Origin: a virus
Taxonomy: Duplodnaviria > Caudoviricetes
Strand: one strand, 5' to 3'
IMG/VR virus record: IMGVR_UViG_3300043654_000022
Location: 1-56,972 of that record
DNA: 56,972 nt
Shown: positions 2,142 through 49,808 of the stretch, one piece after another
Layout: each line of letters begins with the position of its first letter
Position numbering within the stretch: the stretch's first letter is position 1
Position numbers and translations under genes: made by a program
The notes under the pieces: model-generated
The model's input: only the letters and a program-made list of their open reading frames with translations
Told to the model about the DNA's origin: nothing
Databases searched by the model: none

Positions 2142-2220
2142 CGTGGAATGGGAGAGTCTGGCCGTCTCCGCTCGTTTTGGAAACGAGAGAACCTTGGTTC
2201 AAATCCAAGTTCCGCGACCA
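2142..2220 (+). tRNA. tRNA-Pro(TGG)
   Basis: ctcgt-ttTGGaa-acgag, T-loop ttcaaat, CCA. Confidence 0.9.
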
Positions 2221-2290
2221 TTTTTGTGGCGTAACAGACCACGATTGAAGTAAATCGTTCTCGGACGTAAACCGAGTGGTTGAGTTCAGT

Positions 2291-2366
2291 TCCACTCTGG
2301 TCCAACAGGTAGGACACTTCACTGTTAATGAAGAGGGTCTCCGTTCGAATCGGAGGGGTGGAGCCA
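2291..2366 (+). tRNA. tRNA-Asn(GTT)
   Basis: cttca-ctGTTaa-tgaag, G73 CCA. Confidence 0.92.
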
Positions 2367-2375
2367 ATTTTTTAC

Positions 2376-2449
2376 GGGGTCGTCGTCCAGTGACAGGACG
2401 CTCGACTGTCTATCGAAGAACGGGGGTTTGATTCCCCTCGGCCCCGCCA
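2376..2449 (+). tRNA. tRNA-Asp(GTC)
   Basis: tcga-ctGTCta-tcga, G73 CCA. Confidence 0.9.
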
Positions 2450-2726
2450 TGATGTTGCAACAGTGCCGCAATGCTCCGGGTCGCCCCCGCGAAGCAGACT
2501 CGCTAGCTGGTTAAGGGTCAGAAGGCACACGGGACTTGAAAAATCCCCAAGGCGCGTCCGGGAACCGCGCGTTGATAAATAGTTCCTCGGATTTGTGTCC
2601 AGCACGGAGATATTATTGTGCTGGCAAAGCCAGTAGTGATTCACGTTTGGTAGCCGAGATAAATTGGTAACTCGGTGCCGACTGCCGAAAGGCCCGAACC
2701 GTGCCTCACGCCAATTGATTTTCTGT

Positions 2727-2811
2727 AGCCTCTTGGCGGAACGCATACGCTCTGGTTTTAGAAACCAGCGCCCGTAAGGGATTGAGAGTTCAAGTCTCTC
2801 AGAGGCTACCA
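2727..2811 (+). tRNA. tRNA-Leu(TAG)
   Basis: ctggt-ttTAGaa-accag, long V-arm, A73 CCA. Confidence 0.9.
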
Positions 2812-2957
2812 AGTTTTGGCTGAGTATGCTTCGCCGTGAAAACGGAATGAAGACCAACCAGCGGCTACGAGCCGCAAAGTTTGTACGTACATCGGTAGGG
2901 GGTGCCGCAATCATCCCCAGCCACTCTATTGCAGAGGGTGAAATAAAGAATTTCAGA

Positions 2958-3033
2958 CTCCTCGATTCTCGGACGGACGGGTACCGCACTTCTAAGGCGG
3001 ATTTAGAGAGTTCGAATCTCTCCGAGGGGTCCA
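2958..3033 (+). tRNA. tRNA-Arg(TCT)
   Basis: loop ctTCTaa, T-loop ttcgaat, CCA. Confidence 0.85.
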
Positions 3034-3178
3034 GTTTTTTCGTGGGTAGGTGTGACAACCGGGAGGCGAAACGAAAAAGCGGGAATTAGGATATGGTGTC
3101 TTCCCCCGCCGCGATGCAATCGTGAATCCGGTCTAGTCAACTGGAGTGCTTTGCACTGTGAGGACGCCACGATTTTTA

Positions 3179-3253
3179 GGGCTGCTCGTATATCGTATAA
3201 TGCACAGCGCTACGAACGCTGGGAGCGGGGTTAGACTCCCCGGTGGCCCTCCA
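3179..3253 (+). tRNA. tRNA-Arg(ACG)
   Basis: cagcg-ctACGaa-cgctg, CCA; T-loop ttagact. Confidence 0.88.
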
Positions 3254-3260
3254 TTTTAAT

Positions 3261-3347
3261 CGCCTGCTGGCGGAATTGGCAGACGCAGCGGATTCAAAAC
3301 CCGCCGCCCGAGAGGGCGTTAGAGTTCGAATCTCTAGTTGGCGACCA
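3261..3347 (+). tRNA. tRNA-Leu(CAA)
   Basis: loop ttCAAaa, long V-arm, A73 CCA. Confidence 0.9.
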
Positions 3348-3379
3348 TTTTGAAATCCATTGACTACGGTCAGGTGATT

Positions 3380-3799
3380 ATGAACAGCAACCAAAGAAAA
3401 GATGCAACGCTAGGAATGCCTCACGGCACCGCGAGTGGCAGACTTCGGAAGATGATTTTGTTCAATCTTTTGAAAAAGCACGGCGAGAATTCCTGCCATG
3501 CTTGCGGAAAGCCGATTGATTCTGTAGATGCTTTGAGTATTGAGCACAAGAAACCGTGGGAAGGGGTATCGGCTGACTTGTTTTGGGATTTAGAAAACAT
3601 AGCGTTTTCGCATCTTCGATGTAATACTCCGAACCGCCCTTACAACAATGGTGGGTGGAACAAGAAACCAGCCCCAGAAGGGATGGCGTGGTGCATCGGA
3701 CATCAAGTATTCGAACCAGTCGAAAACTTTTGGAAGAACGCAAGTTTTTGGAATGGTCTTGAGAAGTACTGCAAGACGACCAAGATTCGAAATAGATAA
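3380..3799 (+). CDS. HNH endonuclease (free-standing, inside tRNA array)
   Basis: CHACG...SIEHKKPW...NIAFSHLRCN. Confidence 0.85.
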   Translation: MNSNQRKDATLGMPHGTASGRLRKMILFNLLKKHGENSCHACGKPIDSVDALSIEHKKPWEGVSADLFWDLENIAFSHLRCNTPNRPYNNGGWNKKPAPEGMAWCIGHQVFEPVENFWKNASFWNGLEKYCKTTKIRNR

Positions 3800-3806
3800 A
3801 GATTTT

Positions 3807-3890
3807 GCGCGTGTGGCGGAAAGGCATACGCAGGGCACTTAAAACGCCCCGCCGAAAGGCATGAGGGTCCGACTCCCTCGGCGCGCACCA
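3807..3890 (+). tRNA. tRNA-Leu(TAA)
   Basis: loop ctTAAaa, V-arm gccgaaaggc, CCA. Confidence 0.9.
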
Positions 3891-3926
3891 AGTGACAAAG
3901 GCCCGACGCGAGTCGGGTCGGAGATT

Positions 3927-4000
3927 GCACGAATCGGCAAGTGGTAAGCTAGCTGTCTGCAAAACAGCCATCGCGTGTTCGATTCACGCTTCGTGCTCCA
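3927..4000 (+). tRNA. tRNA-Cys(GCA)
   Basis: gctgt-ctGCAaa-acagc, U73 CCA. Confidence 0.92.
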
Positions 4001-4080
4001 AGTTCGTCGGCCCTATTCACGAAGACAAGCCGAATCGTTTCTTCTCCGCGTTGGTAACGAAAACTCAAAGCGGAATATTT

Positions 4081-4355
4081 TGGTAGCGTAGACGAACGCG
4101 GTGAGAAACCCGAGAGGGCTATAAGCCGAGGAAAGTCAGGCCATATCTCAACGCCGCTTTGTGGAAGTTGCAAGACGCGTAAGCGTACGAGTAAGGACCC
4201 ATAACCGAAAGGTTCATTCGAGTGGGGTAACTCTCAGCGGATGTAAGTTCGAATAGGACCGGAGCGCTCGTTGAGCACAATGATGGTCGGGTTGAACGCA
4301 CAGAGGAATGTTCGTCACCGCGCAAGCGGAACAGAAGCCTGCTTATTCGTTGCCA
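4081..4355 (+). ncRNA. rnpB: RNase P RNA, compact (~275 nt)
   Basis: P1 tggtagcg/cgttgcca; CR-I GAGGAAAGTCAGGC; CR-IV AGAGGAATGTTCGTC; CR-V AACAGAAGCCTGCTTA; P6 tcaac/gttga; P7 ccgct/agcgg. Confidence 0.93.
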
Positions 4356-4398
4356 CTAAATTTTAGTTTTGTACGTACGCACGATAAGCGAGTTCAGT

Positions 4399-4473
4399 CG
4401 GTTGCTAGTGTCAAAGTAGCACAGCAGGCTCTTAACCTGACGAGTGAAAGTGCAAGTCTTTCGCGACCGACCA
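4399..4473 (+). tRNA. tRNA-Lys(CTT)
   Basis: cagg-ctCTTaa-cctg, CCA; T-loop tgcaagt. Confidence 0.85.
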
Positions 4474-4588
4474 ATTTTCGAAAGAGACGTGCTCCGCGCA
4501 CGAGAGCGAAATAATGCGGCGGCGGGCGAATGACGCCCTCAGTCTACCAAGACGTTACGAAGAGGTGGAATGCCTCAAAAGTTTCTGT

Positions 4589-4664
4589 ACCCGATTATCA
4601 AACTGGTCGTATGAACCTCTCCTACAAAGAGGCTGGCAGAGTTCGATTCTCTGATTGGGTACCA
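4589..4664 (+). tRNA. tRNA-Val(TAC)
   Basis: cctct-ccTACaa-agagg (C33), A73 CCA. Confidence 0.85.
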
Positions 4665-4671
4665 ATTTCTG

Positions 4672-4760
4672 TGGGGACGCAGTTCGCGGTAGAGTGAACG
4701 CTTGCGACATCCGGTACCGGACTCGTAAGATGGCGGGGGTGAATGACCCTCGGGTTCCCA
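4672..4760 (+). ncRNA. tRNA-like RNA with an extended, closed anticodon arm
   Basis: four-arm cloverleaf; anticodon loop replaced by tccggtaccgga palindrome; ends ccca. Confidence 0.5.
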
Positions 4761-4766
4761 GATTTT

Positions 4767-4857
4767 TGTCGGTAGCATCAGTATGCAGCGCGGTTTTATA
4801 AACCGCGAAGCTCCAGATGAGAGCGCCGAGAGTGGGCAGCACACTCACCGACAACCA
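4767..4857 (+). tRNA. atypical tRNA-Ile(TAT) with long variable arm
   Basis: tgtcggt/accgaca acceptor, gcggt-ttTATaa-accgc, 4-nt D-loop, T-loop ggcagca, A73 CCA. Confidence 0.75.
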
Positions 4858-4859
4858 AC

Positions 4860-4933
4860 GGCCCTGTCGTCTAAAGGCAGGACTTCCGCTTCTCAAGCGG
4901 AAAACGGCGGGTCAGTACCGCCCGGGGCTACCA
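4860..4933 (+). tRNA. tRNA-Glu(CTC)
   Basis: tccgc-ttCTCaa-gcgga, CCA; T-loop gtcagta. Confidence 0.88.
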
Positions 4934-4972
4934 AGTTTGAAAATGTAAGAGGAGCAGTTTTAAGATACTCTC

Positions 4973-5263
4973 ATGGCAAACAACTATAACTCGAATCCGA
5001 TTTTCATCGACAGCATAATGGCGGCAACCGCGAAGAATAGCGGCGCGACAACGACCAACTCGTTTCATATTAAAGAAATCGTGTGGAGCACACCCGGAAG
5101 CACCGCGGCAGATTCCGCCGTAATTCAAGACGGCTTGGGTAATGAAATTTTCGAACAACAATCGGGCCGAGCAGCACCTGAACTATTTAATCCACCGATG
5201 GTTATAGATGATTTCAAAGTAACAACTTTGGCAGATGGACACATTCTGATTTATTTGGTATAA
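4973..5263 (+). CDS. hypothetical beta-rich protein
   Basis: clean ORF between tRNAs with GAGGAG upstream. Confidence 0.7.
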   Translation: MANNYNSNPIFIDSIMAATAKNSGATTTNSFHIKEIVWSTPGSTAADSAVIQDGLGNEIFEQQSGRAAPELFNPPMVIDDFKVTTLADGHILIYLV

Positions 5264-5282
5264 AGCATAAGTTCAAAGATTC

Positions 5283-5376
5283 TCTCGTGTCGCTGTAAAC
5301 TATCGGCCTGTAGGTGAGCATAGGCGTCCGCTCGATAAGCGGAAGGTAGCTGGTTCGAATCCAGCGACCAGAACCA
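5283..5376 (+). tRNA. tRNA-Ile(GAT), aberrant 5' half
   Basis: tccgc-tcGATaa-gcgga, canonical T-arm, ACCA; imperfect acceptor with extra sequence before the D-arm. Confidence 0.6.
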
Positions 5377-5458
5377 ATTTCGAAGCGACACGGGTCCCGC
5401 GTACGCGGTACGTCGTCAACGGTGGGGAAGCCCGATGGGCCACCGAAAAATTTTTAAT

Positions 5459-5532
5459 CGCAGCGGAGAATTGGTATTCAAGTCTGTCTCATAAGCAGAC
5501 CTCCGAAGGTTCGTTTCCTTCCCCTGCGACCA
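5459..5532 (+). tRNA. tRNA-Met/Ile2(CAT)
   Basis: tctgt-ctCATaa-gcaga, A73 CCA. Confidence 0.85.
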
Positions 5533-5546
5533 ATTTAGGAGACCCG

Positions 5547-5885
5547 ATGATTGAACAAGCATGGACTAGTTTACAAGTCGCAGGTCTCGCGGCATTGACG
5601 TTGACCACGGTTCTTACGGCTCTTGCAGACGGCTACACGACGATGATTGGCATAGAGCACGGAGACGCGGAAAAGAATCCGCTTATCAAGTGGCTCTTCT
5701 CCAAACTAGGCCAGCAACTCACGCTGTTCCTCACGACGGGCGCGGTTCTCTTCGGCGGCGCGATTATCGCAGCGCACACGATGGCGGGTGGCTTCTTGTA
5801 CTTCGGCGCTATGACAGTTAGTCGCGGTATCCGCGCGCTGTTGAACTATCGCTTGTTGAAGAAGCAGAAGATTAGTTTGAAGTAA
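5547..5885 (+). CDS. membrane protein, DUF5658-like
   Basis: three hydrophobic segments; D..TT..G...G..E.NP motif; AGGAG SD. Confidence 0.7.
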   Translation: MIEQAWTSLQVAGLAALTLTTVLTALADGYTTMIGIEHGDAEKNPLIKWLFSKLGQQLTLFLTTGAVLFGGAIIAAHTMAGGFLYFGAMTVSRGIRALLNYRLLKKQKISLK

Positions 5886-5988
5886 GATTTTGAGTAGTGC
5901 CACACGACCCGCCTGACGTTTATGGTAGTCGTCCAGATGCTTTGTTCGGATAAAGGTAGTCCGTCCGTGACGCCGCTCCAGTTTCTAT

Positions 5989-6064
5989 GCCTCGTTAGCT
6001 CAGAAGCAGAGAACTCGGTTCTAACCGAGGGGTGGTACGGGTCGCGTCGTACACGGGGCTTCCA
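5989..6064 (+). tRNA. tRNA-like gene with 6-nt anticodon loop (ttctaa), identity unclear
   Basis: gcctcgt/acggggc acceptor, tagctcag D-arm, ctcgg/ccgag stem, 8-nt T-loop, CCA. Confidence 0.6.
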
Positions 6065-6071
6065 GTTTTGA

Positions 6072-6145
6072 GCCGATGTAGTTTAGTGACAGAACTTTTC
6101 TTTGGTAAAGAAAAAGCCTAAGTTTGATTCTTAGCGTTGGCTCCA
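6072..6145 (+). tRNA. tRNA-Thr(GGT)
   Basis: tttct-ttGGTaa-agaaa, CCA. Confidence 0.9.
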
Positions 6146-6154
6146 GTTTTCAAA

Positions 6155-6229
6155 GCCGAACTAGCTCAATGGTAGAGCGGCGCTTTTGTAAAGCGACGGT
6201 TCGCGGTTCAAGTCCACGGTCCGGCTCCA
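6155..6229 (+). tRNA. tRNA-Thr(TGT)
   Basis: canonical D-arm, loop ttTGTaa, CCA. Confidence 0.92.
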
Positions 6230-6247
6230 GTTTTGTAGCTACAATTT

Positions 6248-6296
6248 GACGGGGTGCCTTGAACACCCCGTCTCACTCTTTCAAGGAGGGTGAAAA
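6248..6296 (+). promoter_or_regulatory. kissing-hairpin leader covering the HNH gene SD
   Basis: loop ccttgaa complementary to loop ttcaagg, which overlaps AGGAGG. Confidence 0.65.
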
Positions 6297-6866
6297 ATGA
6301 AATATAAATGTGTTCGGTGTGGTGTTGAGTTTTTCAGAAAGCACGGTGCTAGAAAGTATTGCTCCGTCGCCTGTGCCCAGAGAAGACTAGAAGGCGAGTG
6401 CGCCGATTGTAAGAAAGTCATTTCAGCCAATAAGGTCCGATGTGCAGATTGTCGAAACAAGATACGAGATGAGTGGCCCGAAAAACAAAAGATTCAGAGA
6501 AGAGAAAACGCGTATAGAATAAGTCGAGAGCCGCGCGGTCGATTTCACAGGCTTAAGAAAAATTTGAAAGACGAGAAAGTCCCCTCATCAGACCCTATCT
6601 GGAATTTTAATTTTTATGCTGCTTTGATACAAGATGAGCAGTGTCATTACTGTTTCGGTCCTCTGAGTCCGACAGGACACGCGTTAGACAGAGTAATAAA
6701 CAGTTTGGGACACACGGCGGGTAATGTTGTTCCTTGCTGTTAGCCCTGCAACACTATTAAAGGAAAGTACTGGGAGTATGAGCACATGATGTTGCTTGCC
6801 CCCAAACTTAGAGGTCTAAGAATTTCAAAGCTGGAAGCGCCCGATGGCAGGGCACCTCTTTCGTAA
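6297..6866 (+). pseudogene. Zn-finger HNH endonuclease interrupted by in-frame TAG at 6741
   Basis: CHYC...LDRV...NVVPCC*PCNTIKG; frame stays open to TAA 6864-6866. Confidence 0.75.
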
Positions 6867-6904
6867 AGAGTTCTCCAAAGGTTCAATTCCTTTTTCTAGC
6901 TCCA
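6830..6904 (+). tRNA. tRNA-Thr(CGT)
   Basis: ctct-ttCGTaa-agag, CCA. Confidence 0.88.
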
Positions 6905-6914
6905 ATTTTTCTGA

Positions 6915-6988
6915 GCGGGACTGGCGTATTGGCAGCGCGACAGTCTTCCAAACTGTAGGAAAGGGTTCAACTCCCTTGTTCCGCTCCA
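6915..6988 (+). tRNA. tRNA-Gly(TCC)
   Basis: acagt-ctTCCaa-actgt, U73 CCA. Confidence 0.92.
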
Positions 6989-11863: not shown

Positions 11864-14179
11864 ATGTTGACCGCAGAAGAGAGAAAAGAACAAGCCCGCC
11901 GTAGAAAGGCAAATCAGCGTGCTCGTGAAAAAGGTCAACCGGAGCCGTACAAGGTTACTGAGGAAGAAAAGGCTTTTAAGAAAGTGCGCGAGGAGCAATA
12001 CGAGAAAGACCTTGCGTGGGCGCGCCAACAAGATGCGAGTGGGAAGTTTTACAAAGAAGAGTGCCGTGGCACTGAGCAGCTTCTCGCAATCTATTACGGC
12101 AACAACACCGGAGTAGAGGAAGAGGACGACGAAGAAGGGTCGGAAGCCAACAAGAAAAAGAAGGCTCAGCAGAATATGCCGAACCCGGCGATTCAGCCTA
12201 TCCGTATTCTTGCGTCGGAGACTGTCGAAAATGGCGAGCGCGTACTCATCAACCCGGATGACGTGAAGTACCAAGGTTTCTACGAAGTCAGTAAGGTGCT
12301 GGCGTTCCGCGAGTGGTTGGATTATAGAAGCAAAGGCCGCCGCGATTTGTTTTGGCTTTCAGGTCTTCTGGATAAGCCTTTATTTCACGACGTTCATCAC
12401 CTCATTTGCGACATGTTTGTGCAAAAGAATTTCACGGGTAGGTACTATCCGGGGTTCAACCGCCACACCGTGAGCGCGATAATTAATTCACAAGTGCGCT
12501 TTTCAGCCGACGGGTCACCGACCCGAACCGCTTTGATTTTTGCTCCTCGCGGCGTGTGGAAGTCGACTATCGACGGCATCGATGCCGTGCAGTGGATGTT
12601 GAACGCACCAGACGTTCGCATCATGATTATTACGGCGTTTCGCACCCTATCAAAACAGTTTTTGAAGGAAATTAAGAGTTACTTCTATTTGCCGCCGCGC
12701 GGCGAGGCTACGGCATTTCAGTTGTTGTACCCAGAGTACGTTCTTACAGGCTTAGCGGGCCGCTCCAGAGAGCCGCTCGAATGCCCAGCCGCCACATTGA
12801 AATCGAAGGAACCCCACTTGTGGGTCACGTCGATGGAGTCGTCCATTACAGGCCAGCGCTGCGATATTTGTAAAGCAGACGATATCGTGGACCCGAAGAA
12901 TTCGACCGATGAGGTGATGAGACAGGGCCTCGTTGACAAGTTCAACGGAGCGTTGAACCTCACTGAACCTTGGGGATTCATCGACACCATTGGCACACGC
13001 TACTTCACAGACGACTATTACGGCACCCGTATGCAGGCGGATGAAGACGGCACTGTTGCGCCATTCTCTTTGTTGAGTTTGTCGGCGTGGTATCCGAAGC
13101 CGGGATTTGAGGTCACGTATCAGCGCCTTTTGGAAGAGCCGAACGGCATGTCGCAGGTCACCGAAGACATGGTCGATTTGCTGTTTCCATTCAAACTGAA
13201 TTTCGTCACCTTGCGTCGCAAGCTGTTAGACACGAAAGAGCGCAAGTCAACGAACATTCAAAAAGAACGCAATTTCCGTAACCAGTATTTGAACATTGCA
13301 ACTGACCCAGCAGAGGTCAGTGAGTTCACCGTACACTTCGAGATGCAGACGCTCCGCAGCATGACGTATGCATTGTCTGCCGCACCAACGGCAGGCGAGA
13401 CGTTCGTATCGATTGATTGGGCGTACTCGGACGGCAAGACCTCAGACTACTCGGCGTTGGCGGCAGTTCGTCGCCACACACGCGCGGATGGAACTTACGA
13501 GCTAATCGTTTTGGAAGTTCTGTTCGGTAAATGGAAGTCCTCAGTGCTGGCCGAAAAGATTGTTCTGTTCTTGAGAAAGTATCAGCCCGCCGCCACCTTC
13601 ATCGAGAAGGCGCTGGGACATGATTTGCTTCACACACTTCTTGTTTGGAACGCTGGCCGCTACCAAGTTGATTTGAGTCGCGTACAATACGTCCCAACAG
13701 GAAACACAAAGAACGAGAAAGCAAACCGCATCAAGACTTTAGAAGTCCTCGTAGCCGCGGAGCGCCTGCACTTTGTGGCAGGTCCGTGGATTGACGAACT
13801 GTACAAGCAGTTCGAGGGCTTCACAGGCGATACAAAGAAGGGCAGAAAAGACGACATTCCAGACGCAATCTCTCGTGTTAGCAAGACGCTCCCGTCCACG
13901 ATGTTTACGGGAGTCGAGTACGACGAGATAGAAGAGAAGCGTTTGGCAGAAGAAGAAACAAAGCAACTCCGTAAGGCGCACCACTACAACACGTACTTTG
14001 GGACCAACTACGGCGGCACAATAAAGTACCCCGGCCCGCCGTCAACACAGGCCCCAACCGTTCGACAGTGGTTAAACGGTGGAACACTGCCGCCGCTGAC
14101 AATCACCGAAGTTGCACCAGCGAAACCGCAGGACCCGAGAATGAAAATATTCGGCAATAGAGGTCCTTGGAGACTTTAA
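11864..14179 (+). CDS. terL: terminase large subunit
   Basis: Walker A APRGVWKST, Walker B ICKADD, coupling IGTRY, nuclease SIDWAYS..SDYSA and KDDIPDA. Confidence 0.93.
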   Translation: MLTAEERKEQARRRKANQRAREKGQPEPYKVTEEEKAFKKVREEQYEKDLAWARQQDASGKFYKEECRGTEQLLAIYYGNNTGVEEEDDEEGSEANKKKKAQQNMPNPAIQPIRILASETVENGERVLINPDDVKYQGFYEVSKVLAFREWLDYRSKGRRDLFWLSGLLDKPLFHDVHHLICDMFVQKNFTGRYYPGFNRHTVSAIINSQVRFSADGSPTRTALIFAPRGVWKSTIDGIDAVQWMLNAPDVRIMIITAFRTLSKQFLKEIKSYFYLPPRGEATAFQLLYPEYVLTGLAGRSREPLECPAATLKSKEPHLWVTSMESSITGQRCDICKADDIVDPKNSTDEVMRQGLVDKFNGALNLTEPWGFIDTIGTRYFTDDYYGTRMQADEDGTVAPFSLLSLSAWYPKPGFEVTYQRLLEEPNGMSQVTEDMVDLLFPFKLNFVTLRRKLLDTKERKSTNIQKERNFRNQYLNIATDPAEVSEFTVHFEMQTLRSMTYALSAAPTAGETFVSIDWAYSDGKTSDYSALAAVRRHTRADGTYELIVLEVLFGKWKSSVLAEKIVLFLRKYQPAATFIEKALGHDLLHTLLVWNAGRYQVDLSRVQYVPTGNTKNEKANRIKTLEVLVAAERLHFVAGPWIDELYKQFEGFTGDTKKGRKDDIPDAISRVSKTLPSTMFTGVEYDEIEEKRLAEEETKQLRKAHHYNTYFGTNYGGTIKYPGPPSTQAPTVRQWLNGGTLPPLTITEVAPAKPQDPRMKIFGNRGPWRL

Positions 14180-16323
14180 TGGCAGACCCGTTCGAGAATG
14201 TGGACACAAGCAGCTTAGAGCAGAGTGCCCACGATAAGGCTATTGCTGCACTGGCGCAGACGCCTGCGAACGAGATTACGGACGAGAACACGTATCTTGA
14301 TGCCGACACCGGAACGGTTCAGTTCAACGATACGGCAGCCATCAAGTTGGTCATCGACAACACCGCGATGGCTGACAACTACATGAACATCAACCAGTGG
14401 GCTTCGGGTTGGACAATGGCGGACTTGCTGTACCAGTCACCCGTGTCCGGCAACGGGGACGGCGCTACTGACGTGGCGACCTCCGCGGTTCCGAAGTTCA
14501 TGGTTTCTAATCACATCTCATCGATTGTGCCGAAGATTATGGGCGGCATTTTCTATGAAGACCCGTGCTTCTTGCTGCGCCCGTCACCGGGCACCACAGA
14601 GCAAGTGATTCAAGCGAAGACGGCAATCTTTGAATTTCAATTGAAAGCAATGCGCTTCGAGGAAGAAGTCGAGCGCGGCTTGGAACAGATGGCCTTGTTG
14701 GGCACCGCGATTTGGAAGTGGGGCTACACCGAGTACAGTAAGAAAGAGAAGAAATACAAGCGCTACGCCGACAAGACAACAATTGCCGATGGCGAAGGCA
14801 CAATCGAAATCGATACGCCGGAATCGGATGACTTTGAAATCGAATTTTACGACAAGGAAGTCTCCCACCCTTGGTTGAAGTATTGCGACATCCGCACGGT
14901 CCTCGTGGACCCGGGATGCCGTCAAGGCGACATCCGTTACGCCAAGTGGGTGGTCTACCGCGACTACGCAACGTATCAGGATTTGAACAAGCTGCGCGAC
15001 ATGGAAGGCTACGACATCCCTTCGGAAGAAGTTTTGAAGGCGATGTTTTTGAAGCCTCACACGGGCAGCAAGCCGGACAACATCTCGATGACCATCCCGG
15101 AAGGGATGTTGGGTTATTTGCAGCACGCAACCCCGAGAAACCAAGCAAACACCGCGGACCCAACTCGCGCGCCGTTGGAGATTTTGGAGTACTGGGACAG
15201 CGAGAAAGTTATCGTTGTCTTGATGTATAACAGCAACTACATTCTTATTCGCAACGAGCAGAATCCGTACGGGAAGATTCCTTTCTACTCGGCAAACTGG
15301 CGCAACATCCCGGATTGCTTTTACGGGCAGGGCCTAGGCCTGCTAATTGGTAGCGAGCAAATCGTTGAGCAAGGCGTAACAAACCTCGCACTAGACCTGC
15401 TTGCTTACTGCTTGCAGCCCGTGGCTCTACGTAAGAAAGGATTCAACGCCCCAACGCAGAACACACGATGGGAACAGGGCGGCATTATCGACGTTGAAGA
15501 AGACGTTGAGAAGGCCTTTAAGTTCCTACAAATGCCGACTCCTCCTCAAGAGGCGTTTGCCTTCATCCAGCAATCACAGAGCGCGGGCGCGGCCACATCG
15601 GGCGCGAACGAGCAAGTTATGCAGGGCGCTGGACACGCAGGCATTTCTACGACGGGTATGAGAAGCGGGACGGGAGCAGCGGCGGTTGTTGCAGCCAACG
15701 CATCGCGTCTTGATGGACCAACCGGACGCTTCGTACGCCAAGTGTTCGAACCTTGGTTGCACCAGATGGACGACCTTGACAACGATTTGTTGCCGACCGC
15801 CGTTCTTCGTGACATTTTAGGCGACGAGATTAGTGAGTCCTTCAAGGTTGACCACATTGACTACCGTAACTCGGAAGTCAAGTATGAGGTCTTGGCGGGA
15901 GCAAATCTGGGAGCGAAGAAGGAAATGGCGCAATTCTTACCAGTCCTCATCCAGATGTTCACCAACCCAATCTTTTTGCAGGGTGTCAAGGACGCCGGAC
16001 ACAAGTTCGACGCTCTTGCAATCTTCCAATCATTCTGTGACGCAGCAGGATGGAAGTTCTCTCAGAATTTCGTCGTTCCGATGACGGACCAAGAGAAGGC
16101 AAAAGAACAGGCAAACAGCCCAGCAGCGTTGCAGGCGGCGCAAGCACAAAGCGCCAAGGCAATGCAGGACGCTAAGTTCAAACAAGAACAGACCTTGGAA
16201 AACCAGAAACAACTTGGCAAGGCTGGCAACGAAGCTGTTCGAGCTTCGATTGAGAAATCAACTCAGCCCGAGTACCTAGGTACGAATAATACCGAGGGCT
16301 TCGGCTCAACTACAAGTTTGTAA
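14179..16323 (+). CDS. portal protein
   Basis: follows terL; LLGTAIWKWG, NPYGKIPF, FYGQG motifs; Gln/Ala-rich C-terminus. Confidence 0.88.
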   Translation: MADPFENVDTSSLEQSAHDKAIAALAQTPANEITDENTYLDADTGTVQFNDTAAIKLVIDNTAMADNYMNINQWASGWTMADLLYQSPVSGNGDGATDVATSAVPKFMVSNHISSIVPKIMGGIFYEDPCFLLRPSPGTTEQVIQAKTAIFEFQLKAMRFEEEVERGLEQMALLGTAIWKWGYTEYSKKEKKYKRYADKTTIADGEGTIEIDTPESDDFEIEFYDKEVSHPWLKYCDIRTVLVDPGCRQGDIRYAKWVVYRDYATYQDLNKLRDMEGYDIPSEEVLKAMFLKPHTGSKPDNISMTIPEGMLGYLQHATPRNQANTADPTRAPLEILEYWDSEKVIVVLMYNSNYILIRNEQNPYGKIPFYSANWRNIPDCFYGQGLGLLIGSEQIVEQGVTNLALDLLAYCLQPVALRKKGFNAPTQNTRWEQGGIIDVEEDVEKAFKFLQMPTPPQEAFAFIQQSQSAGAATSGANEQVMQGAGHAGISTTGMRSGTGAAAVVAANASRLDGPTGRFVRQVFEPWLHQMDDLDNDLLPTAVLRDILGDEISESFKVDHIDYRNSEVKYEVLAGANLGAKKEMAQFLPVLIQMFTNPIFLQGVKDAGHKFDALAIFQSFCDAAGWKFSQNFVVPMTDQEKAKEQANSPAALQAAQAQSAKAMQDAKFKQEQTLENQKQLGKAGNEAVRASIEKSTQPEYLGTNNTEGFGSTTSL

Positions 16324-16773: not shown

Positions 16774-18036
16774 ATGAGCACAATCAATCGCGAAGATTTG
16801 ATGAATATGGATTGGAAGTCCATCGCCGCGGCGTTGAAGAACCCGGAAACCCAAGGTCGAGTTATGTCCTTGATGAAGGGCGATAGAGATTTGAACGCTC
16901 ACATCAACAAGCTGTTGCTGGCGAGAAACTCGGAGTTGTCGCAAGTTGAAGAACAGGTTGACCACCAGATTGCGGTCGCCGTTCCTCCGACCACCGAGGC
17001 TTTGGCAGCGGAAGCGCAAGCAGCGACAGAGGTCCCGGTAGCACCGCCTGTGGCTGAACCAGTAGCGCCCCCGGCAACCGCGGAGCGCAAGAAGATTGTG
17101 CGCGAGTATCAAGTGCGCGACGAAGATGGCAGTCCGATTGGCCGCCCAACACATTTGGAAGCTTGGTCATCGGAAGAGATGATGGAGAAGATGCAAACGG
17201 CGCATGAAAATGCGACGCGCGCATTTCACCGCTTGAAGAAGCAGAAGCTGCAATTCAAGGAACAAGAGCAGAGTCGCTTGCTGACGCCGGAAGAGATTAA
17301 AGCCGTAGCAACGAAAGCTTTGGAAGGCAAGGACGCCGCGGAAGCCGAGAAAATCGTGCGCGCAGCCCTTGACAGCACTTTTAAGCAAAGAGAAGTTGAG
17401 ATACAACAGAAGAGTGACATGCAGGAAGGTTTGGCAATCGCCAACTCGTTCATCCTCCGTCATCGCTTCGACTATAACCCGTGCAAGGCAAACAACGATG
17501 CGATGGCTGAATACCTTCGCGAGCACGGACTGAATTATACCTTGGACAACTTGGAGGTCGCGTTCATCGACCTCTCGGAACAAGGTGATAAACTCGCCGC
17601 CGTGGATGTGAACAGCTTCCCGGCGGCAAAGAGACCAGCGGAGCAGGCGACAAATACGCCTGTCACCGCGGCTGCATCAGCAGTTGTTGCTCCAGCGGAA
17701 CTCCCGCCAGCACCAGCGGCAGCAGCGATACCAGCAGAAGTAGCCCAACCGGCGGCTGTCACAGAAGCAAGCCAGCCAGCGGTTGAAGAAACGGTAACGA
17801 CGCCTGTAGCAACGCAGCCTAATGCTGCTACGCCTACCCGTCGTCCGGGCGTGAATGGGAGCCTACCACCGGGAACGATGAGCGCAAATCGTCCCTCGGC
17901 AGTTGACCCCGCTCAAGCGAGAAAAGAGTTCATGAGAGAACTCAAAGTCATGAAGCCGGAAGTAATCAGACAGAAGTTGAAGAGCGACCCTCAGTTCGTG
18001 AAACAACTTCAAACTTACGGCATTCGCGTCTCGTAA
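16774..18036 (+). CDS. scaffold-like protein
   Basis: coiled-coil and Pro/Ala-rich, directly upstream of capsid gene. Confidence 0.7.
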   Translation: MSTINREDLMNMDWKSIAAALKNPETQGRVMSLMKGDRDLNAHINKLLLARNSELSQVEEQVDHQIAVAVPPTTEALAAEAQAATEVPVAPPVAEPVAPPATAERKKIVREYQVRDEDGSPIGRPTHLEAWSSEEMMEKMQTAHENATRAFHRLKKQKLQFKEQEQSRLLTPEEIKAVATKALEGKDAAEAEKIVRAALDSTFKQREVEIQQKSDMQEGLAIANSFILRHRFDYNPCKANNDAMAEYLREHGLNYTLDNLEVAFIDLSEQGDKLAAVDVNSFPAAKRPAEQATNTPVTAAASAVVAPAELPPAPAAAAIPAEVAQPAAVTEASQPAVEETVTTPVATQPNAATPTRRPGVNGSLPPGTMSANRPSAVDPAQARKEFMRELKVMKPEVIRQKLKSDPQFVKQLQTYGIRVS

Positions 18037-18078
18037 TCTCTCTCCCGCGAAAGCGGAGACTAGCTTGCAGAGTAGAAT

Positions 18079-20155
18079 ATGTCAGGACCTAACCCATCGG
18101 GAAATAACGTAGCAAACGTACTAACGGCGCAAGCCATCATCAAAAAGGTGACACTCTAAAACAACTTGACTGAAAGAGTCAAATGTGCTAGAATAGACAA
18201 TCTCTTCTTATTGACTTGAAACCTGAAACGGCAACAAGGCGGAAGCCGAAAGGCACCGTGAGAGACTAAGCGAAGAGACGCCGAAAGGCGATGCGATAGT
18301 CCGTTCTTCCGAGAAAACAATCGGAAGAAGCAAGCAGAAATGACTTGCTCTCTGGAATACACCAGAGTAACAAAACAGCTTCGACAAGGAACTTATCCCT
18401 ATCGCGTAAGCGAGCAAGTTCCGAAGGAATGACATGAAGGTACGAAACATCGTTGGACAGACTTTTGGGAGACTGACCGCCCAGAGTGCCGCAGGCAGTA
18501 ACAGCAGGGGGCGAGCACTGTGGTTGTGTCGTTGTTCTTGTGGCAAAGAGAAAATAGTTCTCGGAGACCACTTAACACGAAAGGATGCCAAAGGCGTAAG
18601 GTCTTGCGGATGTTTACAGCAAGAGAATCGTACAAAGCATGGAGCATTTTCTTCAAATTCAGATATAAAATACCACGTTCGTTATTCTCTTCTGGCAGGC
18701 TTGAAGGACAGAAGCCGCAGAAGGGGCTACGAATCAGACTTAGAAATCTCCGACATACCCGAGATTCCTGAGCTTTGTCCCGTTCTTGGGACTCGTTTGA
18801 GTTTGCACCGAAACAGCCACGGCAAAGGAAAAGGCAGAGGCAGAAATAGACAAGACGCCTCTCCATCAATAGACAGATTTAATTCAAATCTTCCGTACCT
18901 TAAAAAGTACAAAGATAATCTGTGTATTATTTCGTGGCGAGCAAACAAGCTAAAGTCAGACGCGTCTCTTGTCGAGATGAAGAAAGTGGTGGAATATCTT
19001 GAAAATTGGGGCACTCAGCAGAGTGAAAAATCTTCTCTAATTGACTCGAAACCCAACCAAATCGGGGGCAACGAGGCGGAAGCGAATAGCGCCGTGAGAG
19101 ACTAATCGAGAAGACGCCGAGAGGCGATGTAATAGTCCGGTCTAACAAATGAAAATTGTTAGAGGCTGGCGGAAACGACCAGTCCCGTGATGGGCGTCAC
19201 GGTAACATATACGAACCTAAAGGGTAATACAAACGCCTTCGTTGGAGCAGCAGAGCGTCGTGTTCAAGGCCTTCACATGGGCGTGAACCGCACCTTCTTC
19301 CAGTACAACACTTTGTCGGGTGACACTGTTCAGAACAGTGACGGCACTGTGGGTTCGCCGGAAACCATCAGCCAAGTCAGCGCGCCAGCGCAGATTGGTG
19401 AGTGGAACAACTATGCGAACTTCTCATCGTTTGCAATCGCAGCCGCAATCGATGAGCTCGTTGGCAACAGCGCAGTTGAACTCGGCTACCAAGCTGGGCA
19501 GTCAATCAGCGAGTTGTACAGCGCAGTTGCTGACAGCGCTTCGGGCGTAGACAGCAACGTGAACCAGTCAAGCCTATTGGCCTCGCCGTTTATACTTGAT
19601 TTGGCAACCATCCGTACTTTGAAGCAGCAGCTTGTTTCGAAGAACGTGCTTCCATGCAAGCGTGGAATGTATTTGGGCGCAATCAGCCCGAACGTGTTGG
19701 GCGACATCTACAACGCAACGACTGTGAACAACAGCATCGCTGACTTGTGGAAGTACGAAAACATGGAGAAGTTTGATGCGACCGCGGGCGCTGACCAGAA
19801 CAAGGTCATCGTGTTGCCGGGCACCAACATCGGCTTCATGCAGACCCCGTTCGTGACCACGACGGCTAACTACCAAGCAAGCGGAAAAATCGGATACCGT
19901 ACCTACGTATTCGGTAACTACGCAATGATTGGTGTTTGGTTGCAGGTTCCGGGCGACACCGACCTCGATGAGGGAGACTGGAAGACGATTGACTGCCGTG
20001 TCGTAACAGACGCGCCAGCATCATCGTTTGACCCGGTTTCGACAATCGGGGGATGGTGCAGCTACAAATTTCATCAAACCGTTACGTTGCCACCAGCAAC
20101 GGGCTTGAACTCGCAGCGTATCCGCTACATAGATTCGGTTCCGGCCATTCAGTAA
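18079..20155 (+). CDS. major capsid protein, spliced: join(18079-18140,18379-18400,19214-20155), 341 aa
   Basis: exons join in frame to MSGPNPSGNNVANVLTAQAIIFDKELIPNLKGNTNAFVG...; position after scaffold. Confidence 0.85.
18141..18378 (+). mobile_element. group I intron 1 (238 nt, no ORF)
   Basis: 5' splice site after U paired to IGS ggtga; core ccgtgagagactaa...gatagtcc; ends in G. Confidence 0.88.
18166..18194 (+). promoter_or_regulatory. sigma70 promoter inside intron 1
   Basis: TTGACT-17-TAGAAT with extended TG. Confidence 0.65.
18401..19213 (+). mobile_element. group I intron 2 (813 nt) with endonuclease in the P1 loop
   Basis: IGS tggggc near 19006 pairs exon ccct; core ccgtgagagactaa...aatagtcc; ends in G. 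Confidence 0.88.
18434..19105 (+). CDS. intron-encoded HNH-like homing endonuclease
   Basis: GQTFGRLT..WLCRCSCG..SCGC N-domain; CPVLG..SPSIDR..N..IISWRAN..K. Confidence 0.85.
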   Translation: MKVRNIVGQTFGRLTAQSAAGSNSRGRALWLCRCSCGKEKIVLGDHLTRKDAKGVRSCGCLQQENRTKHGAFSSNSDIKYHVRYSLLAGLKDRSRRRGYESDLEISDIPEIPELCPVLGTRLSLHRNSHGKGKGRGRNRQDASPSIDRFNSNLPYLKKYKDNLCIISWRANKLKSDASLVEMKKVVEYLENWGTQQSEKSSLIDSKPNQIGGNEAEANSAVRD

Positions 20156-20254: not shown

Positions 20255-20539
20255 ATGTCAGAAGCAACAAGAGCAGCAAGTCGTCGTTATTATCAAAAGA
20301 ATAAGGAAGCAGAACAAGGAAACAAATGTGCTATTTGCCGACAGGAAACTAATTTGCTTGTAGTAGACCATAATCATCTGTGTTGTCCATCGAGAAAAAG
20401 CCGAGCAGGATATAAAACTTGTGGCAGATGTAATCGTGGCCTCTTATGTCGTTCATGTAATACAGCAATCGGATTGTTCAAAGAATCGGAGCAAGTCCTC
20501 AGCAGCGCAATCCAATATCTCAAAGGATACCAACAATGA
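20255..20539 (+). CDS. endonuclease VII-like (His-Me) nuclease
   Basis: CAIC..VDHNH..RGLLCRSCNTAIG. Confidence 0.85.
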   Translation: MSEATRAASRRYYQKNKEAEQGNKCAICRQETNLLVVDHNHLCCPSRKSRAGYKTCGRCNRGLLCRSCNTAIGLFKESEQVLSSAIQYLKGYQQ

Positions 20540-48326: not shown

Positions 48327-48490
48327 TGTCTGTCATCCTTGTACGGCTTTGCAACCGTCTCAAAAACTTCCGCAAGATATCGCACCTTTTCACCTGTCGC
48401 CAGTATGGTGATGTCGTAGAAGCCACCACCCTCTGACTTGGTGGCCTCCACGACAATCCCGGCGACGAGGTACTGGTTACTTTTTTCCAT
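48323..48490 (-). CDS. small protein (55 aa, not in ORF track)
   Basis: fills the gap exactly; ATGA coupling. Confidence 0.55.
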   Translation of the reverse strand: MEKSNQYLVAGIVVEATKSEGGGFYDITILATGEKVRYLAEVFETVAKPYKDDRQ

Positions 48491-49808
48491 CGCTCAACCC
48501 CTTAACACAAACGAGTTGCTTAATTGCGAGCACTGGCTCAACAAGGTCACTTTGACTCGCCATAACGTCATCAATCGGCTTGTAAGCCCCCGGCGTCTCG
48601 TCAAGCACGCTGAGGGTCTTGTCGCAGTAGACGCCAAACGTTGCCGCTTGGTGGTCGGCTACTGTGAACTCTTTCAAAGCCTGCGTTCGGCTCATCGCGC
48701 GACCCGCGCCGTGGGAGCAAGAGTTGAATGAATCCTTAGAGCCGAGTCCGCGGGCGATGTACGTCTTAGCGCCCATCGAACCGGGAATGATTACCCAATT
48801 ACCTTTCGATGCGTCCACCGCCCCCTTGCGGGTCAAGATGGTGTCGCCCAAGATACTCGCGTAGTTGTGGTGCATGTGAATCACCGATGGCGCATTCAAA
48901 TCCATGTACCCGTCTTGTGTTGCGCCGATTGCCGTCAATACGCGCTGCATCATAATCTCGCGATTAATCCACGCGAACTCTTGCGCGAGTTTGACCGCGC
49001 TGAGATAGTCGTTGTATTCTGGTGTGTCCTTCGGCAGGTAGCCGAGGTCCTTGTTCGGAAGCTGAACTCCCCACTTCTTGCATAATTCCCCAGCTAATTT
49101 GGTGAAGTATGTACCGATGCGATTACCAAATCCGCGCGAACCTGAGTGAATCACAACCCAGAGGTTCGAATCAGGGTTGTCGATTTCAGCGCAAACTTCA
49201 ATGAAGTGATTTCCGGTGCCGAGCGTACCCAAGTGGCGCTCCGCGTTCTTCGAAAGTGCGCCCGGATGACGGGTGAATATGGATTCTGGATGCTCCCGAG
49301 AACCAAGCAGAGAATGCACGCCCGTTACTCGGCTATCAAAATTTTCACGCCAAATCTCTTGAATGTCCGATGGCACTTCGCCCCATGCGCCGCGGTCACC
49401 CAGCCCGCCGTCGTTGGTGCGCCCGTGCGGCACCGCAGTTGAGATATAAGAGAAAAATTTAGCTTCCACGCTTGCGTGACCGCCTGATTGGTACTCGTCA
49501 TCAAGTTCATCAAGACGCAGGTTGGTTCGAACTGCCATCATGCCGCAGCCGATGTCCACACCGACCGCTGCGGGCATCACAGCGCCCACCGTGGGGATAA
49601 CGGACCCAATAGTTGCGCCCATGCCCCAATGCGTGTCCGGCATAGCAGCCACGTACGGCTTCACGAACGGCATTGAGGCGACCTCGTCAAGCTGCTTCAA
49701 AGCCGCGTCTTCAATCGTGACGTGCTTGTTCCACAACTTGATTAGTTTGTTGCCCACCGCTCGGGTGTTGTAGTTCTTTTGAACCATCTTTTCCTTTGGC
49801 AAATTCAT
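48477..49808 (-). CDS. rtcB: RNA-splicing/repair ligase RtcB
   Basis: MPD.H.G.G..IG, GVDIGCG, GTLG.GNHF.E, HSGSRG, HHNY, RKGA, IIPGSMG, SHGAGR, DE.PGAYK. Confidence 0.96.
   Translation of the reverse strand: MNLPKEKMVQKNYNTRAVGNKLIKLWNKHVTIEDAALKQLDEVASMPFVKPYVAAMPDTHWGMGATIGSVIPTVGAVMPAAVGVDIGCGMMAVRTNLRLDELDDEYQSGGHASVEAKFFSYISTAVPHGRTNDGGLGDRGAWGEVPSDIQEIWRENFDSRVTGVHSLLGSREHPESIFTRHPGALSKNAERHLGTLGTGNHFIEVCAEIDNPDSNLWVVIHSGSRGFGNRIGTYFTKLAGELCKKWGVQLPNKDLGYLPKDTPEYNDYLSAVKLAQEFAWINREIMMQRVLTAIGATQDGYMDLNAPSVIHMHHNYASILGDTILTRKGAVDASKGNWVIIPGSMGAKTYIARGLGSKDSFNSCSHGAGRAMSRTQALKEFTVADHQAATFGVYCDKTLSVLDETPGAYKPIDDVMASQSDLVEPVLAIKQLVCVKGLSDGKK

Follow-up and report, generated by a model that had tools for sequence, protein, structure and literature searches.

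The window analysed here, a complete contig of 56,972 nucleotides (nt) from an uncultured soil phage of the Caudoviricetes (IMG/VR record IMGVR_UViG_3300043654_000022), carries a major capsid gene on its + strand between positions 18079 and 20155. We found that this gene lies in three pieces of 62, 22 and 942 nt, which give one open frame of 341 codons when joined. On comparative sequence evidence, the two inserts that separate the pieces are group I introns, interrupting a capsid gene of three exons. Taken together, the data lead us to the explanation that two mobile group I introns, both from one compact family, interrupt the capsid gene and move as a cassette; we assign this explanation a probability of about 0.9.

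Exons, introns and the joined reading frame

Exon 1 (62 nt, 18079-18140) opens with the true ATG start of the capsid gene and contains codons 1-20 plus 2 nt. It is followed by intron 1 (238 nt, 18141-18378), a predicted group I intron that holds no open reading frame (ORF) and has its terminal G at 18378. The micro-exon (22 nt, 18379-18400) contributes the last base of codon 21 together with codons 22-28 (FDKELIP). Next to it lies intron 2 (813 nt, 18401-19213), likewise of group I, with an endonuclease ORF in the loop of its P1 helix and its terminal G at 19213. Exon 3 (942 nt including the stop codon, 19214-20155) completes the gene, and all five features are on the + strand. A T precedes each insert and a G closes it. 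The sequence alone permits a slide of one base at each boundary, and the rule of a U before the insert and a G as its last base (the U/G rule) is satisfied only at the positions given here.

An initial annotation of this stretch had already proposed these exons and introns, and all of its coordinates hold, with the three pieces joining in frame to encode 341 amino acids (aa). It had also remarked that the ORF track misses the true capsid start, and the program-made ORF list indeed offers a GTG ORF at 19187-20155 instead. Its expectation that skipping of the micro-exon would shift the frame was borne out as well: a join without the micro-exon runs into a stop after 22 codons.

In unspliced RNA, an in-frame stop is met at 18157-18159, six codons into intron 1, and a second one at 18407-18409, two codons into intron 2, halts translation if that intron is retained. 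Because of these in-frame stops, inteins or read-through were rejected as explanations of the inserts. Group II introns were also rejected, since 238 nt is too short for them and the core is of the group I type.

Homologs and identity of the joined product

With exon 3 as query, the homolog search gave 290 proteins at E <= 0.001, of which the best 120 were listed. A single uninterrupted ORF spans both junctions in 100 of the 120 listed homologs, and in the same number the N-terminus agrees with that encoded by exon 1. The length of 341 aa is the commonest among these 100 uninterrupted homologs (33/100), and two of the proteins, P0005 and P0013, are identical to the joined product over residues 10-45. 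The alignment with intron-less homologs that the initial annotation had named as a check was thus run, and the joined N-terminus is present in them. Because one ORF covers both junctions in so many of the listed homologs, the joined N-terminus is, by this sequence comparison, not a chance frame. The remaining 20 listed homologs are N-terminally shorter gene calls, several of which start exactly at an insertion site.

The only cultured relative was Tunturiibacter phage Tunturi_3, whose protein is annotated as a major head protein and shares 37.5% identity with the exon 3 product; its N-terminal motif matches the joined protein at an equal distance from the start. The heptapeptide encoded by the micro-exon is contiguous with its neighbouring residues in 61 of the 80 related capsid loci that we compared. 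It falls in the region of codons 20-32, which is nearly invariant in the family, and F22, D23, E25, L26, P28, N29, K31 and G32 are invariant in alignment A2.

The identity of the product, which the initial annotation had given as the major capsid protein (MCP), is supported by gene order, by a profile match and by a structure model. The genes for the large terminase (11864-14179) and the portal (14167-16323) are followed by a scaffold-like ORF (16774-18036), which directly precedes the capsid gene. Exon 3 has a match to the major head protein family phrog_1357 (7.8e-5). The Pfam family PF25209 (Phage_capsid_4) matches 25 of 68 family members; P0002, a homolog 93% identical to exon 3, is itself unmatched. 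A structure model of P0002 on the deep alignment A3 reached a predicted local distance difference test score (pLDDT) of 88.3 and a predicted template modelling score (pTM) of 0.82; it was used instead of an earlier capsid model on the shallow alignment A2, which was unusable at a pLDDT of 32. The best Foldseek matches of the P0002 model are the capsid proteins of N4, Moo19, Pan3 and GP4 (E 1e-12 to 1e-11, TM 0.55-0.70). A sequence search of the PDB with the capsid profile gave chance kinesin matches only. Judged from the model, the joined product is an HK97-fold major capsid protein.

Between the scaffold-like ORF and the capsid start, we also observed a GC-rich hairpin with a GAAA loop on the + strand (18044-18061), with no run of T after it.

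Group I architecture of the two inserts

Alignment A1 comprises 31 distinct introns, namely the ORF-less inserts of the related loci and the 3' part of intron 2. The structure scored on it has 42 pairs in P3, P4, P5, P6/P6a, P7 (crossing P3), P8, P9 and P9.1. Standard pairs occupy 99.6% of the 1248 cells, and compensatory changes on both sides were found at 31 of the 42 pairs. None of 500 shuffles reached any of the observed pairing measures. When the partners were slid by 1-3 columns, pairing fell to 35-42%; the structure was partly read from the same sequences, so this control is somewhat flattering, and the compensatory counts are independent of that. Within P7, GACUA/UAGUC is invariant in all 31 introns, and one further pair, either G-C (16 introns) or A-U (15 introns), lies across a bulged base. 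P7 is predicted to be the guanosine-binding helix with its bulged base. The consensus elements 'R' and 'S', which flank P7, are conserved in group I introns.

In intron 1, the catalytic core defined by this covariation spans 18201-18302 on the + strand. Its helices are P3 (18201-18207/18272-18278), P4 (18215-18218/18235-18238), P5 (18222-18223/18230-18231), P6 (18239-18242/18256-18259), P6a (18245-18247/18252-18254), P7 (18262 and 18264-18268 paired with 18297-18302, the bulged base being 18263) and P8 (18279-18282/18287-18290). Peripheral hairpins follow at 18306-18367 (+), with P9 at 18306-18312/18321-18327, P9.1 at 18330-18334/18344-18348 and P9.2 at 18350-18355/18362-18367. Intron 1 and intron 2 differ in two adjacent pairs of P3, which are swapped on both strands. 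Minimum free energy folding of the single sequences recovers P2-P6a, P8, P9, P9.1 and P9.2 for both introns (z = -5.2 for intron 1 and -3.0 for intron 2). The core profile, searched with nhmmer, matches intron 1 at 18199-18303 (E = 2.7e-29) and intron 2 at 19029-19139 (E = 6.1e-22), and these are its only two copies across the window.

The initial annotation had seen a U.G pair at the 5' splice sites as well as the terminal Gs, and we found the corresponding guide pairing for both introns. The predicted internal guide of intron 1 (18147-18151, +) reads GGUGA and pairs with the exon sequence UCAU and the first intron base, with the U.G wobble at the splice site. The bases just 5' of this guide pair with the first 3 nt of the micro-exon, giving a P10 of 3 base pairs (bp; CUU/AAG). 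The predicted guide of intron 2 (GGGG, 19008-19011, +) pairs with the exon sequence CCCU, again with a U.G wobble. It is followed by P2 (19012-19016/19021-19025), has a P10 of 2 bp (AA/UU), and agrees in position with the guide of the ORF-less relatives in A1. Those relatives have their guide close to the 5' end, where it is paired to the final 3-8 bases of the exon, beginning at the splice site with the U.G wobble. Immediately upstream of the guide, the sequence is usually complementary to the start of the following exon, and this P10 amounts to 4-7 bp in several of the relatives. Over the ten insertion sites found in the family, the guide varies with the exon, and the U.G at the splice site is always present.

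Removal of both introns with the 22-nt exon kept would be needed for the 341-aa protein. The view of the initial annotation that two splicing events are required thus finds support in the intron-less homologs, the covariation and the guide pairing, from which we infer splicing itself. The metatranscriptome run X14 provided three short contigs, from relatives, at 17962-18072 and 19257-19450 only, which leave the introns and junctions uncovered.

Distribution of the intron family

Intron boundaries in the 80 related loci were set by a script under the U/G rule. In the twin-intron loci they were set from peptide anchors, and L046, where the script-set boundary is probably off by about 17 nt, was corrected by eye. 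We found that 61 of the 80 loci are uninterrupted at both sites occupied in the window, and that 19 carry inserts at coding sequence (CDS) position 62 (site 1), 84 (site 2) or 89 (site 3). Other inserts are located at about codon 94, at about codon 285 and at five places between codons 309 and 318, so that ten sites are used in total. At all ten, a T stands before the insert and a G at its end. Matches to the core profile number 53, spread over 38 of the 80 capsid loci and always on the strand of the gene, and the other 42 loci are without any core of this family in the gene region. Single capsid genes hold up to three or four introns (L044, L056, L070, L080). In this phage group, the capsid gene is a hot spot for introns.

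The two introns of the window are related to each other, as the initial annotation had noticed from their cores: 18247-18307 and 19083-19143 are 84% identical over 61 nt, and the cores share 69% identity over P3-P9. The nearest relative of intron 1 is the 164-nt site-2 intron of L044 (84%), and that of intron 2 is the site-3 intron of L054 (73.7%). A local duplication as the origin of the pair was rejected, since both introns are closer to introns found elsewhere, in other phages and at other sites, than to each other. The description of the introns as twins is therefore right in that they belong to one family, but they are not products of a duplication in place.

The locus L044 contains the converse pair, with a 769-nt endonuclease-bearing intron at site 1 and the 164-nt ORF-less intron at site 2. 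A length of 164 nt is unusually small for a group I intron. This intron (L044:3837-4000) keeps P1, P3-P9 and the terminal G and is without P2, P9.1 and P9.2. The family extends to a cultured marine phage: Roseobacter phage CRP-118 (OR420741) has an unannotated intron of the same family (L002:2479-2730, nhmmer E = 1e-12) with a 7-bp P1 including the U.G pair, located in the gap between two CDS annotated as 'ribonucleotide reductase'.

Two further inserts of about 940 nt at about codon 94 (L046:1700-2652 and L056:3074-4010) contain a LAGLIDADG-like ORF of 261 and 280 aa, respectively. Because the core profile gives no match to them, these inserts are assigned by sequence to a different intron family. 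We also observed that, in three DNA metagenome runs, the contigs over the intron cores (18205-18306 and 19072-19122) sum to a depth exceeding that of the flanking exons several-fold, up to more than ten-fold. This raised depth probably comes from many related introns in other genomes.

The putative endonuclease reading frame of intron 2

The ORF within intron 2 (18434-19105, +) encodes 223 aa and is of the HNH/endonuclease VII type by PHROGs, with matches to phrog_374 (2.1e-19), phrog_3322 (4.1e-18) and phrog_1035 (2.3e-10), families that bear the names HNH endonuclease, endonuclease and endonuclease VII. We regard its product as a putative HNH-type homing endonuclease. Its relatives are encoded by the site-1 introns of L044, L066 and L070 (62-68% identity) and by the site-3 introns of L035, L051 and L068 (43-44% identity), indicating that one lineage of this putative endonuclease is common to introns at three sites within 27 nt (CDS positions 62, 84 and 89).

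The last 98 nt or so of the ORF coincide with the part of the ribozyme that extends from its guide through the 5' strand of P7. About 30 C-terminal residues of the endonuclease are thereby encoded by the ribozyme itself (19008-19105). The same tail is read in frame in the L044 and L070 homologs, because the RNA core is conserved.

Probable movement of the two introns as one block

The loci L020 and L056 share with the window the architecture of 238 nt, 22 nt and 813 nt. In both, intron 1 and the micro-exon are 100% identical to the window, and the identity of intron 2 is 98.5% in one and 99.8% in the other. Exon 1 is 83.9% and exon 3 is 82-85% identical, and the flanks fall to 51-69% (L020 on both sides, L056 upstream). 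The identical tract begins about 35 nt upstream of intron 1 and extends 41 nt past the end of intron 2. X2, a DNA contig of another study, covers 18106-19443 with the same architecture. Because the introns are 98.5-100% identical while the exons are only 82-85% identical, the comparison points to a recent transfer of intron 1, micro-exon and intron 2 as one cassette.

Homing of introns with co-conversion of the flanking exons is known from T4-type phages, in which cleavage of the intron-less allele by the endonuclease is followed by repair that copies the intron along with adjacent exon sequence. In 'collaborative homing', an ORF-less intron is carried along by a nearby endonuclease. The identity pattern seen here is that expected of homing with co-conversion of the flanking exon, both introns travelling as one block. 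What differs from the T4-type and collaborative cases is that the helper endonuclease lies in a second intron 22 nt away, and that two ribozymes and an exon would move together.

A broader reading combines these observations. It holds that the unit is a composite cassette, in which the ORF-less ribozyme would be carried with its endonuclease-bearing neighbour because the 22-nt exon falls inside every co-conversion tract. It further holds that the region of the capsid N-arm would serve a guild of compact introns as a common landing pad, as follows from one endonuclease lineage serving three closely spaced sites. We hold this broader reading tentatively, at slightly below even odds.

Discussion

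In the proposed mechanism, each intron would fold separately in the late transcript on its own guide sequence. Intron 1 would use P1 UCAU/GUGA and P10 CUU/AAG, and intron 2 would use P1 CCCU/GGGG and P10 AA/UU. Each would be excised by two transesterifications begun by free guanosine, and with both introns out and the 22-nt exon in, the message would encode the 341-aa HK97-fold protein. At the DNA level, the endonuclease would cut intron-less capsid alleles of co-infecting relatives, and repair off the intron-bearing allele would copy both introns with about 35-40 nt of flanking exon. Splicing, endonuclease activity and the cleavage site are predicted parts of this scheme, while the junctions, the covarying architecture, the family match and the identity pattern were computed here.

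Several observations weigh against the explanation by two mobile group I introns. The Rfam model RF00028 (Intron_gpI) gave no match at the gathering score over the whole window, nor at E <= 10 over 17950-19400, and we relied on comparison to establish the architecture; phage introns may escape the Rfam and GISSD models, according to PMC11878797. The P1 (4 bp) and P10 (2 bp) of intron 2 are short, and its P1 closes over a loop of about 600 nt. The endonuclease ORF found no match in Pfam at E <= 0.1 and no relative in the PDB at E <= 1, and the position of the expected HNH histidine reads IDR in all eight aligned homologs. Finally, translation of this ORF through the ribozyme core could compete with folding.

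The initial annotation had suggested that splicing could gate capsid synthesis, and one may imagine that the phage times or limits production of the protein through its need for two splicing events, or by switching between retention and omission of the micro-exon. Such regulation is conceivable because omission of the 22-nt exon brings an early stop, because exon skipping has been reported for Twort Orf142 (23-nt exon) and for Coxiella 23S ribosomal RNA (34-nt exon) in PMC10136302, and because the endonuclease ORF overlaps the core of intron 2, where translation and folding could interact. The distribution of the introns speaks against it: with 61 of 80 loci intron-free at both sites and 42 of 80 without a family core in the gene region, the arrangement is dispensable. 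The guides of the two introns also differ (GUGA versus GGGG), as do two P3 pairs on both strands, and in the engineering study of PMC10136302 such differentiation favours retention of the exon. Because the splice-site recognition elements of the window introns are differentiated in this way, we infer that inclusion of the micro-exon would dominate. The identity pattern, moreover, is that of a selfish cassette. The gating proposal thus found no support, and we consider a regulatory role very unlikely.

The cassette may instead be less than purely selfish, persisting through the damage that its endonuclease would do, to the advantage of this phage, to the capsid gene of intron-less relatives during co-infection. 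Target codons 20-32 are nearly invariant, which would make most relatives cleavable; for phage PhiPA3, an intron endonuclease is reported to mediate interference between co-infecting phages (PMC11620839); and relatives with and without the introns are found in the same metagenome collections. These data are also compatible with plain homing, however, and the endonuclease activity is putative, so that we regard a role as a competitive weapon as rather unlikely. A last alternative is that the insertions do not splice, leaving a capsid pseudogene on the contig of a defective phage. It could appeal to the failure of Rfam to recognise the inserts and to splicing being a prediction from sequence. 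Yet excision under the U/G rule restores the exact frame of the homologs twice, the core helices are all intact and covarying, and three other contigs, whose exons have diverged, keep the same arrangement. We noticed no second MCP-like ORF in the window, though no search was aimed at one. We find a dead gene scarcely credible, and retain the explanation by two spliced, mobile introns.

Micro-exons between group I introns have a published counterpart in Twort Orf142, which has three group I introns with a 23-nt exon between introns 2 and 3 (Landthaler & Shub 1999, as given in PMC10136302). As here, two related introns flank a micro-exon, of 23 nt there and 22 nt in the window, and both introns have to be removed with retention of the exon. 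Orf142 yields both exon-kept and exon-skipped products, and Coxiella 23S ribosomal RNA does likewise around its 34-nt exon (PMC10136302). Introns 2 and 3 of Twort are highly similar, of class IA2, and skipping is observed, whereas the two cores in the window share 69% identity, have different guides and include one endonuclease. The Twort gene is described as being without known function, whereas the gene here is that of the major capsid protein. Micro-exons between organellar introns are also known (PMC5436844).

Mycobacteriophage LittleE (Cluster J; PMC3706429) likewise has an intron in its major capsid gene. That intron follows a U, ends in G and contains an endonuclease ORF, and it too was recognised against intron-less relatives. 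LittleE differs in that it has a single intron, whose LAGLIDADG-like ORF lies on the opposite strand, and in that its splicing was demonstrated by reverse transcription polymerase chain reaction; the window has two introns, known from their sequence, with an HNH-type ORF on the same strand. In crAss-like phages (PMC7886860), the capsid gene is split by multiple group I introns, which confuse gene callers. These phages belong to another order with another capsid family, their introns were recognised by protein domains, and the passages considered describe no micro-exon cassette.

Next to the capsid gene, at 20255-20539 (+), we noted a free-standing endonuclease VII-like gene (Pfam PF02945, 4.1e-15). 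Its homologs occur in 26 of the 80 related loci, mostly just downstream of the capsid gene and in one case upstream, with variable identity. This gene may encode a free-standing homing endonuclease. Elsewhere, the window contains a cluster of 11 transfer RNA (tRNA) genes (2142-6985, +, by Rfam) and a gene for an RtcB-type tRNA-splicing ligase (48477-49808, -; phrog_1075, 9.4e-125), a pairing that hints at the repair of cleaved tRNAs.

Group I introns in phage capsid genes, a micro-exon between group I introns and mobile elements of this kind are already known. Particular to this locus are the signature of movement as one block, the endonuclease lineage common to three neighbouring sites and an intron family missed by Rfam. 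For this phage group, gene callers truncate or split the main marker gene, as seen in the 20 of 120 listed proteins that are shortened. Rfam-based surveys would undercount such phage introns, because Rfam, tested on the window's two copies only, misses both, while the family has 53 copies in 38 of the 80 loci. With 100% identical introns in exons that are 82-85% identical, the locus is a natural system for the joint movement of ribozyme and endonuclease and for the skipping of a micro-exon.

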